From assembly GCF_988243305.1 (NCBI RefSeq), contig NZ_OZ547136.1: a DNA stretch of 64,000 nt, one strand, 5' to 3'. Each line of letters begins with the position of its first letter. Positions within the stretch are counted from its first letter, which is position 1. Position numbers and translations under genes: made by a program. Positions 9,774 to 41,780 of the stretch are shown one piece after another. The notes under the pieces were generated by a model that saw nothing but the letters and a program-made list of their open reading frames with translations, was not told the DNA's origin and made no database searches.

Positions 9774-10613
9774 TTAGCGCCCCCGAATACCATCAGCCAG
9801 ACGTTTGCCGTTACGCACCGACAGCAGCGTCAGCAAAGTGCGCCAGGTCATGCGTTTATTGCGGATCTGGTAGAGGGTAAACAGCTGATATTTTTTGCTG
9901 GCACGGTCGAATTTGTCTTTGTGCTTGCGGTAAAAGTGGAAGTACCCGGAGAATTTTTTCGGTGACGAGGTGATCTGCATTTCACCGTGATTGATATGCA
10001 GGATCTGCGTCGCCTCTTCCACTTTCCACGGTTCGCCATACTCCACCACCATCCGCAGGAAGATGTCGTAATCCTGTGCCGCTTTCAGTTCGGTATCAAA
10101 CAAACACTCTTTGAAACGCCATGCCCAGGTAAAGACCTGATTGCCAATGATATTGCGTTTGTAGAACAGGCGGCGTGAATACGGCGATTTGGGATACAGC
10201 GGTAAGCTTGCCGGTTGGGAATAGACTTCGCCCTGGCAAACGTAATCGTTAGCGTACAAAAAGGCGTGAGTGACCAGTTGCTGTTTATGGGCGAGGAAGA
10301 CGCTCAGACGGTTGGGGGTCCATTCATCATCATCATCGATCCCGGTGATGTATTCCCCTTGCGCCAGCATAATAGCCTGGTTACGTACCGCGCACGCCCC
10401 GCTGTTAATGTCGTTGTGAATGTAGGTAATACGCGGATCGTTGAGGGCGGTGACGTACTGTTGCAGTTGTTCCCAGGAGGTGGAGCAATCATCCACGACG
10501 ATCATCTCCCAGTTGTTGTAGTCCTGGCGCAGGACCGATTTTATCGCCCGAATCGCCAGTTGTTGGCGGTTCCAGGTCGGCATATAGATTGAGATCAGCG
10601 GATTGTCTTTCAT
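9774..10613 (-). CDS. wcaA: Colanic acid biosynthesis glycosyltransferase WcaA (GT2 family)
   Basis: 279-aa ORF MKDNPLISIYMPTWNRQQLAIRAIKSVLRQDYNNWEMIVVDDCS, a GT2 signature. Confidence 0.88.
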   Translation of the reverse strand: MKDNPLISIYMPTWNRQQLAIRAIKSVLRQDYNNWEMIVVDDCSTSWEQLQQYVTALNDPRITYIHNDINSGACAVRNQAIMLAQGEYITGIDDDDEWTPNRLSVFLAHKQQLVTHAFLYANDYVCQGEVYSQPASLPLYPKSPYSRRLFYKRNIIGNQVFTWAWRFKECLFDTELKAAQDYDIFLRMVVEYGEPWKVEEATQILHINHGEMQITSSPKKFSGYFHFYRKHKDKFDRASKKYQLFTLYQIRNKRMTWRTLLTLLSVRNGKRLADGIRGR

Positions 10614-10647
10614 AGGTTGTTCTCCCGGCTTATGAGCTGGTTTGCTT

Positions 10648-10720
10648 GCCGGATGCGGCGTGAGCGCCTTATCCGGCCTACGGGGCGGTGCGAATGCAGG
10701 CGTCGTTATTTCGCATCCGA
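10648..10720. repeat. REP palindromic elements between wzc and wcaA
   Basis: gccggatgcggcgtgagcgccttatccggcctac followed by a second partial palindrome (gcgaatgcaggcgtcgttatttcgcatccgac) that overlaps the wzc stop. Confidence 0.7.
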
Positions 10721-12870: not shown

Positions 12871-13314
12871 TTATACCTGCTCTGCGTTCAATGCCTGCGC
12901 CCACTGGCGGGCAGACCGTTCAAGTAATGTGTACACCGCTGCAAACGTTTCCCGGCTTTTGCGATACGGATCGGGGATTTCACATTCGTTATCCCAGTGA
13001 CCAAACAGCATCACTTTGCCGCGCATCTCAGGTGCCATCTCGCATAAGCGTTCGATATGGCGCTTTTCCATGGTCAAAATCAGGTCGTAGTTGCGACACA
13101 GGCGACGGCTGATTTGCCGTGCACAGTGACCTTCCAGAGACAGTTGATGTTCTGCGGCGACGCTGATAGCAGTAGGGTCAGCGCCCTTACCGACCAGCGC
13201 GCCGAGTCCAGCGGACTCCACTTTCAGCTCCGGGTGATAACGTTGCAGTAAGCGTTCCGCCGTCGGGGAACGGCAAATATTGCCGACACAGACAACTAAG
13301 ATGTTGTTAAACAT
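12871..13314 (-). CDS. wzb: Low-molecular-weight protein-tyrosine phosphatase Wzb
   Basis: 147-aa ORF MFNNILVVCVGNICRSPTAERLL containing the CxGNxCRS P-loop of LMW-PTPs. Confidence 0.93.
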   Translation of the reverse strand: MFNNILVVCVGNICRSPTAERLLQRYHPELKVESAGLGALVGKGADPTAISVAAEHQLSLEGHCARQISRRLCRNYDLILTMEKRHIERLCEMAPEMRGKVMLFGHWDNECEIPDPYRKSRETFAAVYTLLERSARQWAQALNAEQV

Positions 13315-13319
13315 GACGA

Positions 13320-14459
13320 TTACCAGTTATGAATGTCGCTGGCTGTATCCGTCATGTAACGGACACCGCTAATAGTTGGCAGCAACTGATTGATCAGACG
13401 GTTCCAGCGGGAAACCGGGGCGGTGGTGACATACACCACGTCATAAGGTTGCAGGCGGAATTCTGTCGCCATCACCAGCGACGTGGCATCGGACATATCC
13501 AGCTGGTAGATATTGGCAATCTTGCCGTTACGCCCACCCTCGCCTTTCAGCGGACGAATGACAAAGATGCCGCTGGCGTTGGAGGTGGTCATGTCGATGC
13601 CTTCAGCATTGCCCAGGGCTTCAGTCAGGGTCATGCCGCTAAAGTCCATTTTCAGGGTGCTCTGTTTTTTAACTTCACCCATCACAAATACTTTCAGATC
13701 ATCATTACGCGGCACGTAGAGAATATCGCCGGGGTAAAGCAGTCGGTTCTGATTGAGGTCGCCGTTTTGCATCAGCGCCTGCAAAGAAATGCGTTCTTCA
13801 CGACCATTGTGTGTTAGCACCACGTTGCGCCAGTCAGCGGTGTCGGTCAGACCACCTGCGGCGTTGATGGCATCGAGAATGGTCAGTGGTACGTTGGTGA
13901 TGGCCTGTTGACCGGATTTATTCACCTGACCTGAGATATACGCTTTTTGCGAGCGGAAGGCGGCGATATTAACGTCCACCTGCGGGTCAGCGATGTACGT
14001 CGCTAAGCGCCCGGTAATATCACTGCGGATTTCAGCGAGCGTTTTCCCCACCACGTGAACTTTGCCGATATACGGGTAGAACATGGTGCCGTCAGGCTGT
14101 ACCCAGTTGCCGGTGTCGCTGGAGCTGCGGTACTGACCGGCTGGCGTGGTAAGTTCCGGGTGATCCCAGACGGTGACATTAAGAACGTCCCCCGGCCCGA
14201 CGCGATACTGGTAATTCGCGATCTCGCTTTCCAGCGTCATATTGGGGCGCGCTACGTTGGGTCGTGGGCGTAATTGATCAATCAGGCGCGGGGTCAACGG
14301 ATAAACATTCACCATTTTGTCGAGATCGAAATCAGCGTCCTGCTGTTTGATGACGTCTTTGCCCATCGTCGACATATTGCTGCCCGGAAGTACTGTGCAA
14401 CCGCTTATCAAGGTTACTGACACCAATAATGGCATCAATTTCATTTTGGATTTCATCAT
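13320..14459 (-). CDS. wza: Outer-membrane polysaccharide export lipoprotein Wza
   Basis: 379-aa [26 protein letters not shown] (lipoprotein signal with lipobox Cys); first gene of the colanic acid operon. Confidence 0.93.
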
Positions 14460-14637
14460 TGTTTATTTATCACTTTGGCAGAGTAATTATCCTGTGCACT
14501 ATTAATAGCAATGTCGCCATGCACATTTACCTTGCAGTTAATTGAATAAAAATTTAACTGGCATCAGTCCTAAAAAAATTGATTTCATCCGCAGGCTATT
14601 GACAGAATAATTCAGACTGGTCTTTCAGGCATCCAGA

Positions 14638-14649
14638 CACGCTACCGCC
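14638..14649 (-). promoter_or_regulatory. ops element (GGCGGTAGCGTG) within a JUMPStart sequence in the wza leader; RfaH-dependent antitermination site
   Basis: Plus strand 14638-14649 reads cacgctaccgcc, whose reverse complement is GGCGGTAGCGTG, the 12-nt ops consensus. It lies about 180 nt upstream of the wza start on the coding strand. Confidence 0.75.
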
Positions 14650-15117
14650 CCTGGCTTTTTAGCTACCAATACACTGATTTAGCTTAATTTTTAAAACCCT
14701 CTCAACATACAGTCGTTGATGAGAAAGGGTTATTGCGGAAATTAACTTCCGAATATAAGGTGACATTATGGTAATTGAATATTGGCTCTCCAATAATGCA
14801 GGAGGAAGTGTTACAGCTAACGGAATAGCAGGCAAGGTAACAATTCGGCAATTGGCTATTTTTAAGAATTATATTAAGTGTCATTCAACATGGTTTTTAG
14901 GAGTTTCTTTAGGTTGACAATATTTAATATAGTGTCTCCACATGCGATATTTCTTAAATAATGTTTTATTATTACCACTTTTAATTCAGGGATAATGTGA
15001 GGTTATAAACCTCAAATAATATGAGATAAATAGTGCTGCAACATTGCATTTTTGCCCCGATTTATCCATGATCGAATTGTGACATTTGTCATACAACGAA
15101 TAGGTTTTGTACTTACT

Positions 15118-16701
15118 ATGGAATGGATTGCCGATCCGTCTATCTGGGCCGGGTTAATCACGCTGATTGTGATCGAACTGGTCCTCGGCATTGATAACCT
15201 GGTCTTTATTGCCATCCTCGCCGAAAAACTACCGCCGAAGCAGCGCGACCGCGCACGGGTTACCGGGCTGCTGCTGGCGATGTTAATGCGCCTGTTACTG
15301 CTGGCGTCAATCTCCTGGCTGGTCACCCTGACACAACCGCTATTCAGCTTTCGCTCGTTTACCTTTAGCGCCCGCGACTTAATCATGCTGTTTGGTGGTT
15401 TCTTCCTGCTGTTCAAAGCCACGATGGAGCTGAACGAACGGCTGGAAGGGAAAGACAGCAATAACCCCACGCAACGCAAAGGTGCGAAGTTCTGGGGGGT
15501 GGTGACACAAATTGTGGTACTGGACGCCATCTTCTCACTCGACTCGGTGATTACCGCCGTCGGGATGGTCGACCATTTACTGGTCATGATGGCCGCCGTC
15601 GTTATCGCTATTAGCCTGATGTTGATGGCCAGCAAGCCGTTAACGCAATTTGTTAACAGTCACCCGACGATCGTTATTCTCTGCTTAAGCTTCCTGTTGA
15701 TGATTGGCTTTAGCCTGGTGGCAGAAGGTTTCGGCTTCGTCATTCCGAAAGGCTACCTGTACGCTGCTATTGGTTTCTCGGTGATGATCGAGGCGCTCAA
15801 TCAGTTGGCTATCTTTAACCGGCGACGTTTTCTTTCCGCTAACCAGACACTGCGCCAGCGGACTACCGAAGCGGTAATGCGCCTGCTTAGCGGGCAAAAA
15901 GAAGATGCGGAACTGGACGCCGAAACCGCGTCCATGCTGGTGGATCATGGTAACCAGCAGATCTTTAATCCGCAGGAACGGCGGATGATTGAGCGGGTAC
16001 TTAATCTTAACCAGCGTACTGTCAGCAGCATTATGACGTCGCGCCACGATATTGAGCATATCGATCTCAACGCGCCGGAAGAAGAAATCCGCCAGTTGCT
16101 GGAGCGAAATCAGCATACGCGGTTGGTGGTTACCGACGGTGATGACGCAGAAGATTTGCTCGGTGTTGTTCACGTTATCGACCTGCTACAACAGTCACTG
16201 CGCGGCGAACCGCTCAACCTGCGGGTGTTGATTCGCCAGCCGCTGGTGTTCCCGGAAACCTTGCCGTTGTTACCTGCTTTGGAGCAGTTCCGTAATGCCC
16301 GCACACACTTTGCTTTTGTGGTGGATGAGTTTGGCTCGGTGGAAGGGATTGTGACATTAAGTGACGTCACGGAAACTATTGCCGGTAACTTGCCGAACGA
16401 AGTGGAAGAGATCGACGCCCGCCATGATATTCAGAAAAACGCCGACGGTTCCTGGACGGCGAATGGTCATATGCCACTGGAAGATCTGGTGCAATATGTG
16501 CCGCTACCGCTGGATGAGAAACGCGAATATCACACCATTGCCGGGCTGCTGATGGAATATTTGCAGCGTATTCCAAAACCTGGCGAAGAAGTTCAGGTGG
16601 GGGATTATTTGCTTAAAACGTTGCAGGTGGAAAGCCATCGCGTGCAGAAGGTGCAGATTATACCGCTGCGTAAGGATGGCGAGATGGAGTACGAGGTGTG
16701 A
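15118..16701 (+). CDS. yegH: Inner-membrane protein YegH (TerC-family integral membrane domain fused to CBS pair and CorC/HlyC-type transporter-associated domain)
   Basis: ORF track gives 549 aa; I start at [34 protein letters not shown] (527 aa, ATG 15118). Hydrophobic N-terminal half and soluble C-terminal half. Confidence 0.85.
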
Positions 16702-16934
16702 TGGTATCGCCATTTTACCCGATGCTGCGTAACGCCTTATAACTTCAGCAATGAAGCGATGTCTGTGGTACATGGACATCACAGCGGGGGTGTGGGTCCG
16801 GGTTGCCAGGGTGGTGGAGATTGAGCCACCCTGGCACGTTCACCGGCTTGAGCGTTCCATAGTAGCGAGGAACATCAAGTGAACGGAACAGCCTTCGATC
16901 TTACATATTCAGAATATAATGGTGCCGCCACGAA

Positions 16935-16972
16935 CGCCTGATGCGACGCTTTACGCGTCTTATCAGGCCTAC
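16935..16972. repeat. REP element downstream of asmA
   Basis: gcctgatgcgacgctttacgcgtcttatcaggcctaca palindrome. Confidence 0.7.
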
Positions 16973-16992
16973 AGGACAGGTCACCTGGTAAA

Positions 16993-18846
16993 CTACATCT
17001 TCTCCAGCAACTTCTTCACATCTTTGCCATTGCGGGAATCTTTATTCCGCTCGGCCCAGTCATTCAGGCGACGTTTCGCTTCGTCCTGTAGATGTTTGCG
17101 CAGCAGCTGGTCCACTTGCAGGCTGTAATTGAGTTGCTGCCAGTTGCCATAAACCCGCAGCGGTACTGGCGTTTCTTTGAGGAAATCAATCAGTTTGCTT
17201 TCTCCGTTCCATCCACCCACGACCCGAATATCAAACTGGGTGTCGCAGGTTTGCTCCGCCAGATTCAACGTACCAGCCCCGGAAAGCGCCAGCACAGGCG
17301 ATTGACCTTGCATGTCGTTTAACGTCACGACGCCATCCTTCAACGTCAAATAGGTGGTAAAGCGGTCAAGACGCGTCACGTTATCGAAGTTTTCAGCGGC
17401 CTTCACATCACCACCATTACGTTCTACCGCTTGCTGAATCATCTGCTGGAAGTTCATCCCTTCCATGCGTGTGTCGGTCATTTCGACATGTGCCTGTCCT
17501 TGCCAGTTGTGGCGGAATGCGTCGGCATCTATGTCAGCACCGGAGAAATCACCAGCCAGTGACATCTTTCCGGTCAACGAAATCGGATAGTTAAACGCCT
17601 TCAGAATGGTGCCTATCTCAACGTTTTCCAGCCGTGGCTGGAAGTTTATCCGCGGATTTATTGATGTCGCGTCCAGCGTGCCCGGCAGTGAAACCTGTCC
17701 ACCGTTAAGCTTGCCCTGCAGTTGAGTAATTTCCAGCAAACCCGACTTGTTGGTCATTTGCGTGGCAACATCTGTAAAATTCATTCCGCGCCAGCGCACG
17801 TTACTGGCCTGCAACAAAATATCAGCCGTAAAGCCTTGCAGTCCCTGATAGGCCGGTTCATCAATACGCGAAGAAATGACCGGGCGCGGCAACGTTGATT
17901 GGCTCTGCCCCTGCTGCGCGGCACCGTTTTCACCGTTCGCTGTTTCATTAAGCGGGATGAGGTTGTCAAGATTCAGTTGCGGGAATTGCAGTCTCAGCTG
18001 CCATTCCGGTTTCTCTGTCAACGTGACCTGTGCTTGCCCGCTCAGCGTACTGTCATTGGCGGTCAAACTAATTTGGTTAAATGAAAGGCGTTTATGTGAC
18101 TCCTGCCACTGGGCCTGGAAACTCCCCTGCCCCTGAATACCTTGTTTTGGTAAATCTGCACCCTGCAACTGCCAGTTAATTTGTTCAATAGCCGCCGTTA
18201 AATCATGCGGATAATCAGAAGCATCTACCGTACCGTTAAGGGATATCGTGAGATCGCGCTGATCGCGATTAACCCGCCCGGAGAACTCAAATGAGCCACG
18301 ATGTTGGGGATCTTGTTCCATTTGCAGACGGATATTGCGGATTGTCACCTGCTCGTCATCTTCATGCTGGAACACCAGCACGCTGTCCGCCACCTTAAGA
18401 CTGGATATATCAAACGACCATCCGCGATCGTCTGACAGATCCGGCAAGGTATTGTCGCGCGGTGCAACCGGAGCGTCTTCACTGCGCACCGCTTCCGTCT
18501 GCGGCGTCAGTTGGATCACTGCCCCTTTTAGCATCACCTGCTTAACGCTCAGTTGATGACTCAGTAGTGGTAAAAGCGCCACGTCCAGACGCATGTTGTC
18601 GGCGCGAACCAGTGGCTGGCTCGCGCCCTGGGCGGTGAGAGACATTCGCCCGGAGAGGATACTAAGCTGCGGCCAGACGTGCCAACGCAGTGGCCCGTCG
18701 AGCTGCAATTGATAACCGCTACGTGCAGCAACTTGCTTGACCATATAGTCGCGGAAATCATTCGGATTCACCAGCAACACTAACGCAGATAACCCGGCCA
18801 CCAGCACGACCAGGAGTATCATCAGCGTCGTCAGAAATCGTCTCAT
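16993..18846 (-). CDS. asmA: AsmA, outer-membrane protein assembly / AsmA-like lipid transport family protein
   Basis: 617-aa ORF MRRFLTTLMILLVVLVAGLSALVLLVNPNDFRDYM (N-terminal TM anchor); located upstream of dcd-udk as in E. coli. Confidence 0.88.
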   Translation of the reverse strand: MRRFLTTLMILLVVLVAGLSALVLLVNPNDFRDYMVKQVAARSGYQLQLDGPLRWHVWPQLSILSGRMSLTAQGASQPLVRADNMRLDVALLPLLSHQLSVKQVMLKGAVIQLTPQTEAVRSEDAPVAPRDNTLPDLSDDRGWSFDISSLKVADSVLVFQHEDDEQVTIRNIRLQMEQDPQHRGSFEFSGRVNRDQRDLTISLNGTVDASDYPHDLTAAIEQINWQLQGADLPKQGIQGQGSFQAQWQESHKRLSFNQISLTANDSTLSGQAQVTLTEKPEWQLRLQFPQLNLDNLIPLNETANGENGAAQQGQSQSTLPRPVISSRIDEPAYQGLQGFTADILLQASNVRWRGMNFTDVATQMTNKSGLLEITQLQGKLNGGQVSLPGTLDATSINPRINFQPRLENVEIGTILKAFNYPISLTGKMSLAGDFSGADIDADAFRHNWQGQAHVEMTDTRMEGMNFQQMIQQAVERNGGDVKAAENFDNVTRLDRFTTYLTLKDGVVTLNDMQGQSPVLALSGAGTLNLAEQTCDTQFDIRVVGGWNGESKLIDFLKETPVPLRVYGNWQQLNYSLQVDQLLRKHLQDEAKRRLNDWAERNKDSRNGKDVKKLLEKM

Positions 18847-40380: not shown

Positions 40381-41780
40381 AGTTCTGGCGACCCGGTATT
40401 ACCGGCAAACTGTTTCTGGCGATTTTCGCCACCTGCATTGTCTTGCTGATCAGTATGCACTGGGCGGTGCGTATCAGTTTTGAGCGTGGCTTTATTGATT
40501 ACATCAAACACGGCAATGAACAGCGATTACAGCTGTTAAGTGATGCGCTTGGCGAGCAGTATGCGCAGCATGGCAACTGGCGCTTCCTGCGCAACAACGA
40601 TCGCTTTGTCTTTCAGATCCTGCGTTCATTTGAACACGATAATTCGGAAGATAAACCCGGCCCGGGTATGCCTCCGCACGGCTGGCGTACTCAGTTCTGG
40701 GTGATCGATCAAAACAACAAAGTGCTGGTTGGTCCGCGAGCGCCGATTCCACCTGACGGTACACGGCGACCCATTCTGGTCAACGGTGCGGAAGTGGGTG
40801 CGGTGATTGCCTCCCCTGTTGAGCGACTGACCCGCAATACTGATATCAATTTCGATAAACAACAGCGGCAAACCAGCTGGCTGATTGTCGCCCTGGCTAC
40901 GTTACTCGCGGCACTCGCCACCTTTCTGCTGGCGCGTGGTCTGTTGGCCCCGGTCAAACGGCTGGTGGACGGCACGCACAAACTGGCGGCGGGCGATTTC
41001 ACTACCCGCGTGACACCCACCAGTGAAGATGAACTGGGCAAACTGGCGCAAGACTTCAACCAGCTTGCCAGCACGCTGGAGAAAAACCAGCAAATGCGGC
41101 GCGATTTTATGGCCGATATTTCTCACGAACTGCGTACGCCATTAGCGGTGCTGCGCGGTGAACTGGAAGCCATTCAGGATGGCGTGCGTAAATTCACGCC
41201 GGAGACGGTGGCGTCTTTACAGGCGGAGGTCGGTACACTGACCAAACTGGTTGACGATCTCCATCAGTTGTCGATGTCTGATGAAGGCGCTCTCGCCTAT
41301 CAAAAAGCACCGGTAGATTTGATCCCACTGCTGGAAGTGGCGGGCGGCGCATTTCGCGAACGATTCGCCAGCCGTGGCCTGAAACTGCAATTTTCCCTGC
41401 CAGACAGTATTACCGTATTTGGCGATCGCGACCGTTTAATGCAGTTATTCAATAACTTACTGGAAAACAGCCTGCGCTACACTGACAGCGGCGGTAGCCT
41501 GAAAATCTCTGCCGAGCAGCACGACAAAACGGTGCGACTGACCTTTGCCGACAGCGCGCCGGGCGTCAGTGACGATCAGCTACAAAAATTGTTTGAACGT
41601 TTTTATCGCACCGAAGGTTCCCGCAACCGAGCCAGCGGCGGTTCCGGGCTGGGGCTGGCGATTTGCCTGAACATTGTTGAAGCACATAATGGTCGCATTA
41701 TTGCTGCCCATTCGCCTTTTGGCGGGGTAAGCATTACAGTAGAGTTACCGCTGGAACGGGATTTACAGAGAGAAGTATGA
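40377..41780 (+). CDS. baeS: Envelope-stress sensor histidine kinase BaeS
   Basis: 467-aa ORF with TM segments, H-box ISHELRTPL and an ATPase G-box (GSGLGLAI); 4-nt overlap with mdtD. Confidence 0.92.

Follow-up and report, generated by a model that had tools for sequence, protein, structure and literature searches.

The DNA analysed here is a single 64,000-nucleotide stretch ("the window") of contig NZ_OZ547136.1 from NCBI RefSeq assembly GCF_988243305.1. The part of interest is the region between wza, the first gene of the colanic-acid operon, and yegH, which are transcribed divergently from its two sides, as follows.

13320 to 14459, minus strand: wza, gene 1 of the colanic-acid operon, whose ATG is the complement of 14457-14459
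14460 to 15117, not assigned to a strand: the wza-yegH divergent intergenic region (spacer), 658 bp, 34% G+C
15118 to 16701, plus strand: yegH, encoding a TerC-family membrane protein, divergent from wza, with its ATG at 15118

The first-pass annotation, which was made from the sequence alone, had described about 660 bp of low-GC DNA between the two divergent starts, and the measured values (658 bp, 34% G+C) bear this out. Taken in 200-nt segments, the G+C fraction of the spacer lies between 0.31 and 0.39 (0.34 overall), compared with 0.50 to 0.60 (about 52%) in the flanking genes. The window is Escherichia coli DNA. The surrounding 1-kb stretch is 99.9% identical to that of E. coli strain 042, whose RefSeq annotation aligns base for base with the window; of 5,426 complete genomes of this species, 4,818 contain the stretch. 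The corresponding spacer of K-12 strain MG1655 (2137244-2137901) is of equal length and differs from that of the window by 12 substitutions, none of which falls in a functional motif discussed below. Because the two spacers are nearly identical and the substitutions spare these motifs, the literature on K-12 applies directly to this locus.

Downstream of the spacer, the genes within the window run in the order wza-wzb-wzc, followed by a 128-bp gap (10578-10705) and then by wcaA through cpsG, which is truncated at position 1. A length of some 14 kb had been given for the colanic-acid operon; this figure holds for the part within the window, from wza to the truncated cpsG, but not for the operon as a whole, which extends past the left edge. 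Within the wzc-wcaA gap, at about 10648-10677 on the minus strand, there is a REP-type hairpin (GCCGGAUAAGGCGCUCACGCCGCAUCCGGC) that is not followed by a U tract.

To assess conservation, we took one genome per species from the Enterobacteriaceae, which yielded 80 loci with close relatives of Wza, and compared 77 sequences. A yegH homologue lies divergent from wza at 76 of the 80 loci, across spacers that range from 475 to 935 bp in length and from 34 to 41% in G+C content. The AT-richness of the spacer is retained in every one of the 77 species (G+C fraction of 0.34 to 0.41) and is, therefore, an ancestral property and not the product of a recent horizontal transfer.

The ops and JUMPstart elements lie on the wza side of the spacer.

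14638 to 14649, minus strand: ops element GGCGGTAGCGTG, an exact 12-nt match, for which the wza-sense strand is the non-template strand
14638 to 14676, minus strand: JUMPstart element CAGTGTATTGGTAGCTAAAAAGCCAGGGGCGGTAGCGTG (Rfam RF01707), with a small hairpin, UUGGU/GCCAG, formed by 14669-14665 and 14655-14651

An exact ops element had been announced at 14638-14649 of the minus strand, and it is there, reading GGCGGTAGCGTG on the wza-sense strand, on the same strand as wza and separated from the wza ATG by a gap of 178 nt. The element thereby falls within the leader, between a conserved promoter block (14835-14807, from which we place the transcription start only by inference) and the first gene of an operon of at least 15 genes. 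The surrounding JUMPStart context, whose absence on alignment had been set beforehand as grounds for rejecting this reading, is also present: the match to RF01707 scores 57.3 bits (gathering score of 35; E = 1e-11) and covers all 38 positions of the model (1-38), with ops at the element's 3′ end.

Both elements are strongly conserved. The ops core, GGCGGTAG, is kept in 72 of the 77 species at 186 to 199 nt (about 190) upstream of the wza ATG, a count that includes one species in which an insertion has moved it to 308 nt. That species is Citrobacter amalonaticus (strain S646), in which 118 nt have been inserted between ops and wza, placing ops 308 nt from the ATG instead of about 190. The pairs of the JUMPstart hairpin are preserved in 99.5% of alignment cells, with a closing pair that alternates between U-G and U-A, and the cross-species consensus of the element reads CAGTG.aTTGGTa.CTg..aAAGCCA.GGGCGGTAGCgTG.

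The first-pass annotation regarded the ops-bearing leader as consistent with RfaH-dependent read-through of the operon, and this is supported by the exact ops on the non-template strand, the full JUMPstart, its conservation in 72 of 77 species, and published RfaH chromatin immunoprecipitation (ChIP). In E. coli strain CFT073, the ops site of wza-wcaM yields an RfaH ChIP signal once silencing by H-NS/StpA is removed, and recruitment of RfaH requires that ops be on the non-template strand (PMC9765446). Others have referred to a "JUMPStart-RfaH antitermination mechanism" of a wca operon activated by RcsA/RcsB (PMC9976346), and have stated that RfaH is required for the genes downstream of wzc, together with activation by RcsAB (PMC3673037). 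The REP-type hairpin in the wzc-wcaA gap is a plausible candidate for the barrier at which this dependence on RfaH reportedly begins, although that connection is our own.

It is also conceivable that ops is an inert relic, such that the expression of the distal colanic-acid genes is set by RcsAB-dependent initiation alone, without RfaH. Across the window, the ops pattern GGCGGTAGNNTG has two matches, compared with 0.06 expected from shuffled sequences. The second is an ops-like 12-mer, GGCGGTAGCCTG, at 41490-41501 of the plus strand, on the sense strand within the coding sequence of baeS; it most likely arose by chance, and we group it with the intragenic matches that give no RfaH signal in CFT073 (PMC9765446). 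That functionless matches of this kind exist is in keeping with a relic, as is the finding that 34 of the 42 ops sites in CFT073, intragenic matches among them, are without RfaH signal (PMC9765446). Moreover, some lineages keep wza without an intact element: the whole JUMPstart has been cleanly deleted in three species of the Pseudescherichia vulneris group, which have a 475-bp spacer and an intact wza, and in Citrobacter sp. On2M, a G-to-A change at the second position of ops (yielding GACGGTAGCGTG) is accompanied by a retained wza. Because wza persists in the three species that have lost JUMPstart and in the one with a mutated ops, ops is not indispensable in every lineage, and these species represent natural tests of its dispensability. 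What a relic does not account for is that 72 of 77 species maintain the entire 39-nt JUMPstart, and not just the 12 nt of ops, with its distance fixed in a leader that is otherwise variable, and that RfaH gives a ChIP signal at this exact site (PMC9765446). We, therefore, consider it highly improbable that ops is inert here, and retain RfaH-dependent elongation as the preferred interpretation.

The promoter and the RcsAB box were expected to lie further upstream of ops, where the first-pass annotation could not place them. Phylogenetic footprinting of the 77 sequences bears out this expectation and yields candidates for both. Two sites come into consideration as the wza promoter.

14807 to 14835, minus strand: candidate wza promoter recognized by conservation, with the -35 hexamer TTGCCT at 14835-14830, a 17-nt spacer, and the -10 hexamer AACACT at 14812-14807
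14765 to 14792, minus strand: sigma-70 consensus-scan match, TGGAGA-16-CATAAT, with 9 of 12 positions matching

The columns of the first site are more than 90% identical across the 77 species (consensus CTTGCCTG..TTAGCTGcAACAAT), and the block in which it resides, 14842-14800, is among the best conserved of the spacer (consensus CTTGCCTG..tatt.g.TTAGCTGcAACAATtc). Its 17-nt spacer ends in TG (14815-14814), and its -10 hexamer is AACAAT in most species; the AACACT found in E. coli matches the -10 consensus at three of six positions but keeps the key A (position 2) and T (position 6). Taken together, TTGCCT-17-(TG)AACACT is most likely a weak, activator-dependent wza promoter, from which transcription would start near 14800, producing a leader of about 341 nt in which ops extends from about +152. 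By eye, the conserved block contains neither the GG-N10-GC of a sigma-54 promoter nor, in a conserved position, the GGAACTT-N16-TCNAA of a sigma-E promoter, and both readings were rejected.

The sigma-70 motif scan that had been recommended for this region (applied to 14300-15300) missed the conserved block at 14835-14807. It returned only one match, at 14792-14765, where chance would yield 3.5, and this match lacks conservation. Nevertheless, this E. coli-specific TGGAGA-16-CATAAT could be the functional wza promoter, with a start near 14758, in which case the conserved block would be the site of an activator or architectural protein and the RcsAB-like box C (described below) would be centred near -111. 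The RcsAB box is usually placed about 100 bp upstream of the point where transcription begins, which is in line with such an arrangement, and TGGAGA-16-CATAAT alone passes the consensus scan. PMC2478693 describes a single promoter, located upstream of wza and accompanied by an RcsAB box. Two promoters are listed for the operon by RegulonDB in the portion quoted in PMC9764084, a secondary source, which would favour the E. coli-specific site and makes an additional or different wza start possible. However, the site is not conserved outside Escherichia, with a column identity of 10 to 50%, and even within the species, its -35 hexamer reads TGGAAA in MG1655. By comparison, TTGCCT-17-TGnAACAAT is more than 90% conserved and has the correct promoter spacing, and its use would place box B at about -105. 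We, thus, reject TGGAGA-16-CATAAT as the main promoter and view the arrangement built on it as unlikely; its role would at most be that of a secondary promoter specific to E. coli, and the conserved block remains our candidate for the principal one.

Upstream of this conserved promoter block, footprinting reveals three candidate RcsAB boxes, whose centres are given relative to the predicted start near 14800.

14863 to 14876, minus strand: RcsAB-like box C, TAATATAATTCTTA (plus strand TAAGAATTATATTA), centred at about -69.5 and recognized by conservation
14898 to 14911, minus strand: RcsAB-like box B, TAAAGAAACTCCTA, centred at about -104.5 and preceded by a conserved TTGTCAA (14921-14915)
14943 to 14956, minus strand: RcsAB-like box A, TAAGAAATATCGCA, centred at about -149.5, 60 to 90% conserved

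All three are situated 28 to 121 bp upstream of the conserved -35 hexamer. The RcsAB consensus is TaAGaatatTCctA, whose five most-conserved positions are T1, A3, G4, T10, and C11 (PMC4325325); its right half corresponds to the RcsB half-site, wwTTCykA, which usually faces the promoter (PMC3950696), and a related pattern, TN(G/A)GAN4TC(T/C)NA, describes the RcsB box. Counted by hand against TaAGaatatTCctA, box A agrees at 9 of 14 positions, among them all five of the core, and boxes B and C each agree at 10 of 14, among them four of the five. A search of the spacer with the RcsAB consensus, allowing up to three mismatches, returned no 14-mer, and the placement of the boxes, therefore, rests on conservation and not on motif score. 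When one mismatch is allowed, boxes A and C are recovered by the degenerate RcsB pattern, whose 35 matches across the window, compared with 54 expected, show no enrichment.

The individual boxes differ in how well they are preserved. Box C is more than 90% conserved (consensus TTaATaTTA.TCTTAAAA), departs from the RcsB box pattern by one mismatch, and has a promoter-facing half, AATTCTTA, that fits the half-site wwTTCykA perfectly. The right half of box B, TCCTA, is likewise more than 90% conserved along with the A-tract that accompanies it (consensus TGTCAAtaT.aagaaAaTCCTAAAA), and box A, with the consensus tagga.aTatcgca, has one mismatch to TNRGANNNNTCYNA. In the region upstream of MG1655 rcsA, a gene that RcsAB regulates as well, two boxes (TAATATAATTCCGT and TAAGGATTATCCGA) are 33 bp apart, and boxes B and C of wza are 35 bp apart. 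The first of these rcsA boxes has TTAATATAATTC in common with box C, but a 12-nt identity also arises in 56 of 1,000 shuffles, and the likeness to rcsA is, as independent support for box C, only suggestive. Wehland and Bernhard (2000) are said to have described the binding of RcsA/RcsB to "the wza RcsAB box" and a loss of induction upon its mutation; in this sequence, that box may be any of A, B, and C. The outcome is a conservation-based placement of a promoter together with three candidate RcsAB boxes.

An annotated reading frame also lies across this stretch.

14768 to 14917, plus strand: a 49-codon open reading frame, annotated by RefSeq/PGAP in strain 042 as "hypothetical protein" WP_162829205.1, overlapping the wza promoter and boxes

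Many E. coli genomes carry the WP_162829205.1 annotation over the wza promoter, but the reading frame is intact in just 2 of 77 orthologous regions and is broken even in another E. coli. The comparison exposes this RefSeq "hypothetical protein" as spurious, and we do not consider it a real gene.

Based on the sequence, strand, and position of ops and JUMPstart, all seen directly in the DNA, and on the conservation of promoter, boxes, and ops, this region very probably controls the colanic-acid (wca/cps) operon of E. coli, combining initiation activated by Rcs with RfaH-dependent elongation by way of JUMPstart/ops. At the level of initiation, the weak promoter at 14835-14807 would start transcription near 14800 when activated by RcsB/RcsA bound to the upstream boxes (near -70, -105, and -150), and without such activation, the AT-rich DNA would keep the promoter silent through H-NS. 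Consistent with the latter, wza of CFT073 is occupied by H-NS and its initiation is silenced, with sigma-70 peaks appearing only in an hns stpA mutant (PMC9765446). At the level of elongation, the polymerase would transcribe JUMPstart/ops about 150 nt into a leader of roughly 340 nt, and RfaH would be recruited by the ops bases that the paused complex exposes on its non-template strand. By remaining with the polymerase, RfaH would suppress pausing, Rho-dependent termination, and H-NS roadblocks, such that transcription could continue past wza-wzb-wzc and the REP hairpin between wzc and wcaA and so reach the distal biosynthetic genes. RfaH occupancy, activation by RcsAB, and silencing by H-NS are taken here from published work, with the exact start and the RcsAB-binding box or boxes supplied by inference.

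Each component of this scheme has close counterparts. JUMPstart/ops leaders controlled by RfaH are known from hlyCABD, waaQ/rfa, rfb, kps region 3, tra, and the group 1 K30 cps cluster, and they resemble the wza leader in having a JUMPstart of 39 nt whose 3′ end carries the 12-nt ops. They also share the placement of ops on the non-template strand, a long untranslated leader, and a long polysaccharide operon, and the wza locus is itself among the RfaH-bound sites of CFT073 (PMC9765446); in these features, we see no material difference between them and wza. Unlike hly, kps, and rfa, however, initiation at wza is normally silent and needs Rcs activation, for which reason RfaH occupies the site only when silencing is lifted (PMC9765446).

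The candidate boxes, in turn, are comparable to those of exopolysaccharide promoters that depend on an RcsAB box (E. coli rcsA, Erwinia amylovora amsG, Pantoea stewartii cpsA, Klebsiella K2 galF, and Salmonella Typhi tviA), all of which have 14-nt pseudo-palindromes like TaAGaatatTCctA. At these promoters, as with the wza candidates, the boxes are upstream of a weak promoter and their RcsB-type right halves (TCYKA plus A-tract) face it. The wza candidates differ from the RcsAB consensus at 4 to 5 of 14 positions each, and there are three conserved candidates instead of the single box that is usually cited. Finally, the spacer, with 34% G+C beside genes of 52% G+C, is like the AT-rich regions that H-NS silences and whose silencing RfaH counteracts during elongation. 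H-NS occupancy and silencing of wza initiation are known from CFT073 (PMC9765446), and by its composition the present sequence would belong to this class. The JUMPstart-RfaH mechanism, activation by RcsAB, and silencing by H-NS at this locus have already been documented in publications. The locus is a textbook case of two-layer control over a costly surface-polysaccharide operon, to which this interpretation adds nothing new.

Conservation is again high in the remainder of the leader, between ops and wza.

14538 to 14612, minus strand: conserved, near-invariant leader blocks ATTATTCTGTCAATAGCC, TTTTTAGGACTGATGCCAGTTA, and ATTAACTGC
14538 to 14588, minus strand: a 16-codon upstream open reading frame, MKSIFLGLMPVKFLFN, beginning 50 nt after ops and containing an internal UAGGA-N3-AUG start
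14460 to 14497, minus strand: the near-invariant 38 nt preceding the wza ATG, GCACAGGATAATTACTCTGCCAAAGTGATAAATAAACA, recognized by conservation

These blocks could constitute a separate post-transcriptional element, either in the form of an upstream reading frame that loads ribosomes early or as a long-range helix in which the initiation region of wza is hidden. The near-invariance of 14612-14538 and 14497-14460 invites this reading, as does the lack of a canonical Shine-Dalgarno sequence before wza, where only a GUGAU (14472-14468) is present. Of 73 species, 43 have the upstream reading frame intact from its start codon to its end, and 47 have an intact copy of a nested 8-codon frame, which begins at the ATG at 14564 and is preceded by UAGGA (59 to 64% for the two). 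In the remaining species, amounting to about 40% for the longer frame, it is broken by frame-shifting indels in T runs or by loss of the start codon. Furthermore, the best-conserved codons of this frame are invariant at their third positions as well, and constraint on coding is, therefore, indistinguishable from constraint at the nucleotide level.

With respect to the helix, RNAalifold pairs the ops RNA (14646-14639) with 14484-14477 and pairs 14612-14601 with 14497-14485, a composite complementarity of 19 bp. Its covariation is no better than that of shuffled controls (94.7% versus 94.6% of cells paired, and 2 versus 1.9 double-sided changes, over 73 sequences), and two species have lost the 5′ arm while keeping the 3′ arm. 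Although the complementarity is real, the long-range helix is, thus, not supported, and we regard a separate post-transcriptional element of either form as improbable. We hold as more doubtful still the specific proposal that the 190-nt leader past ops, with the upstream frame MKSIFLGLMPVKFLFN and the 38 nt before the AUG, is an uncharacterised translation-control module, serving an mRNA without a canonical Shine-Dalgarno sequence, instead of a passive spacer; such a module could act by loading ribosomes early behind the RfaH-modified polymerase or through long-range pairing of the ops RNA with the initiation region.

At the opposite end of the spacer, a further conserved block precedes yegH.

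15044 to 15104, plus strand: conserved yegH-side block, comprising a promoter-like TTGCAT (15044-15049)-17-CATGAT (15067-15072), a palindrome, and an AGG Shine-Dalgarno sequence (15102-15104)

Its consensus reads ATTGCa...TTAtCCATgATcg.a.tgtgaCa.ttgtcatat...aaGGT. The palindrome, TGTGACATTTGTCATA at 15078-15093, lies between the yegH -10 hexamer and ribosome-binding site, is a perfect TGACAATTGTCA in most species, and also has 9 of 10 positions in common with CRP half-sites. From its arrangement, TTGCAT-17-CATGAT is a candidate yegH promoter, and the palindrome appears operator-like. In the literature that we examined, we found no explanation for the conservation of either the leader past ops or this DNA upstream of yegH, and the evidence for a new function in the leader blocks or at the yegH palindrome is weak. 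An Rfam search of 13000-17000 (E up to 1) returned no riboswitch or small RNA family besides JUMPstart and a subthreshold naRNA4. The naRNA4 match (33 bits, relative to a gathering score of 59.5) lies just past yegH, at 16897-16969 of the plus strand, and corresponds to a REP/BIME-like repeat.
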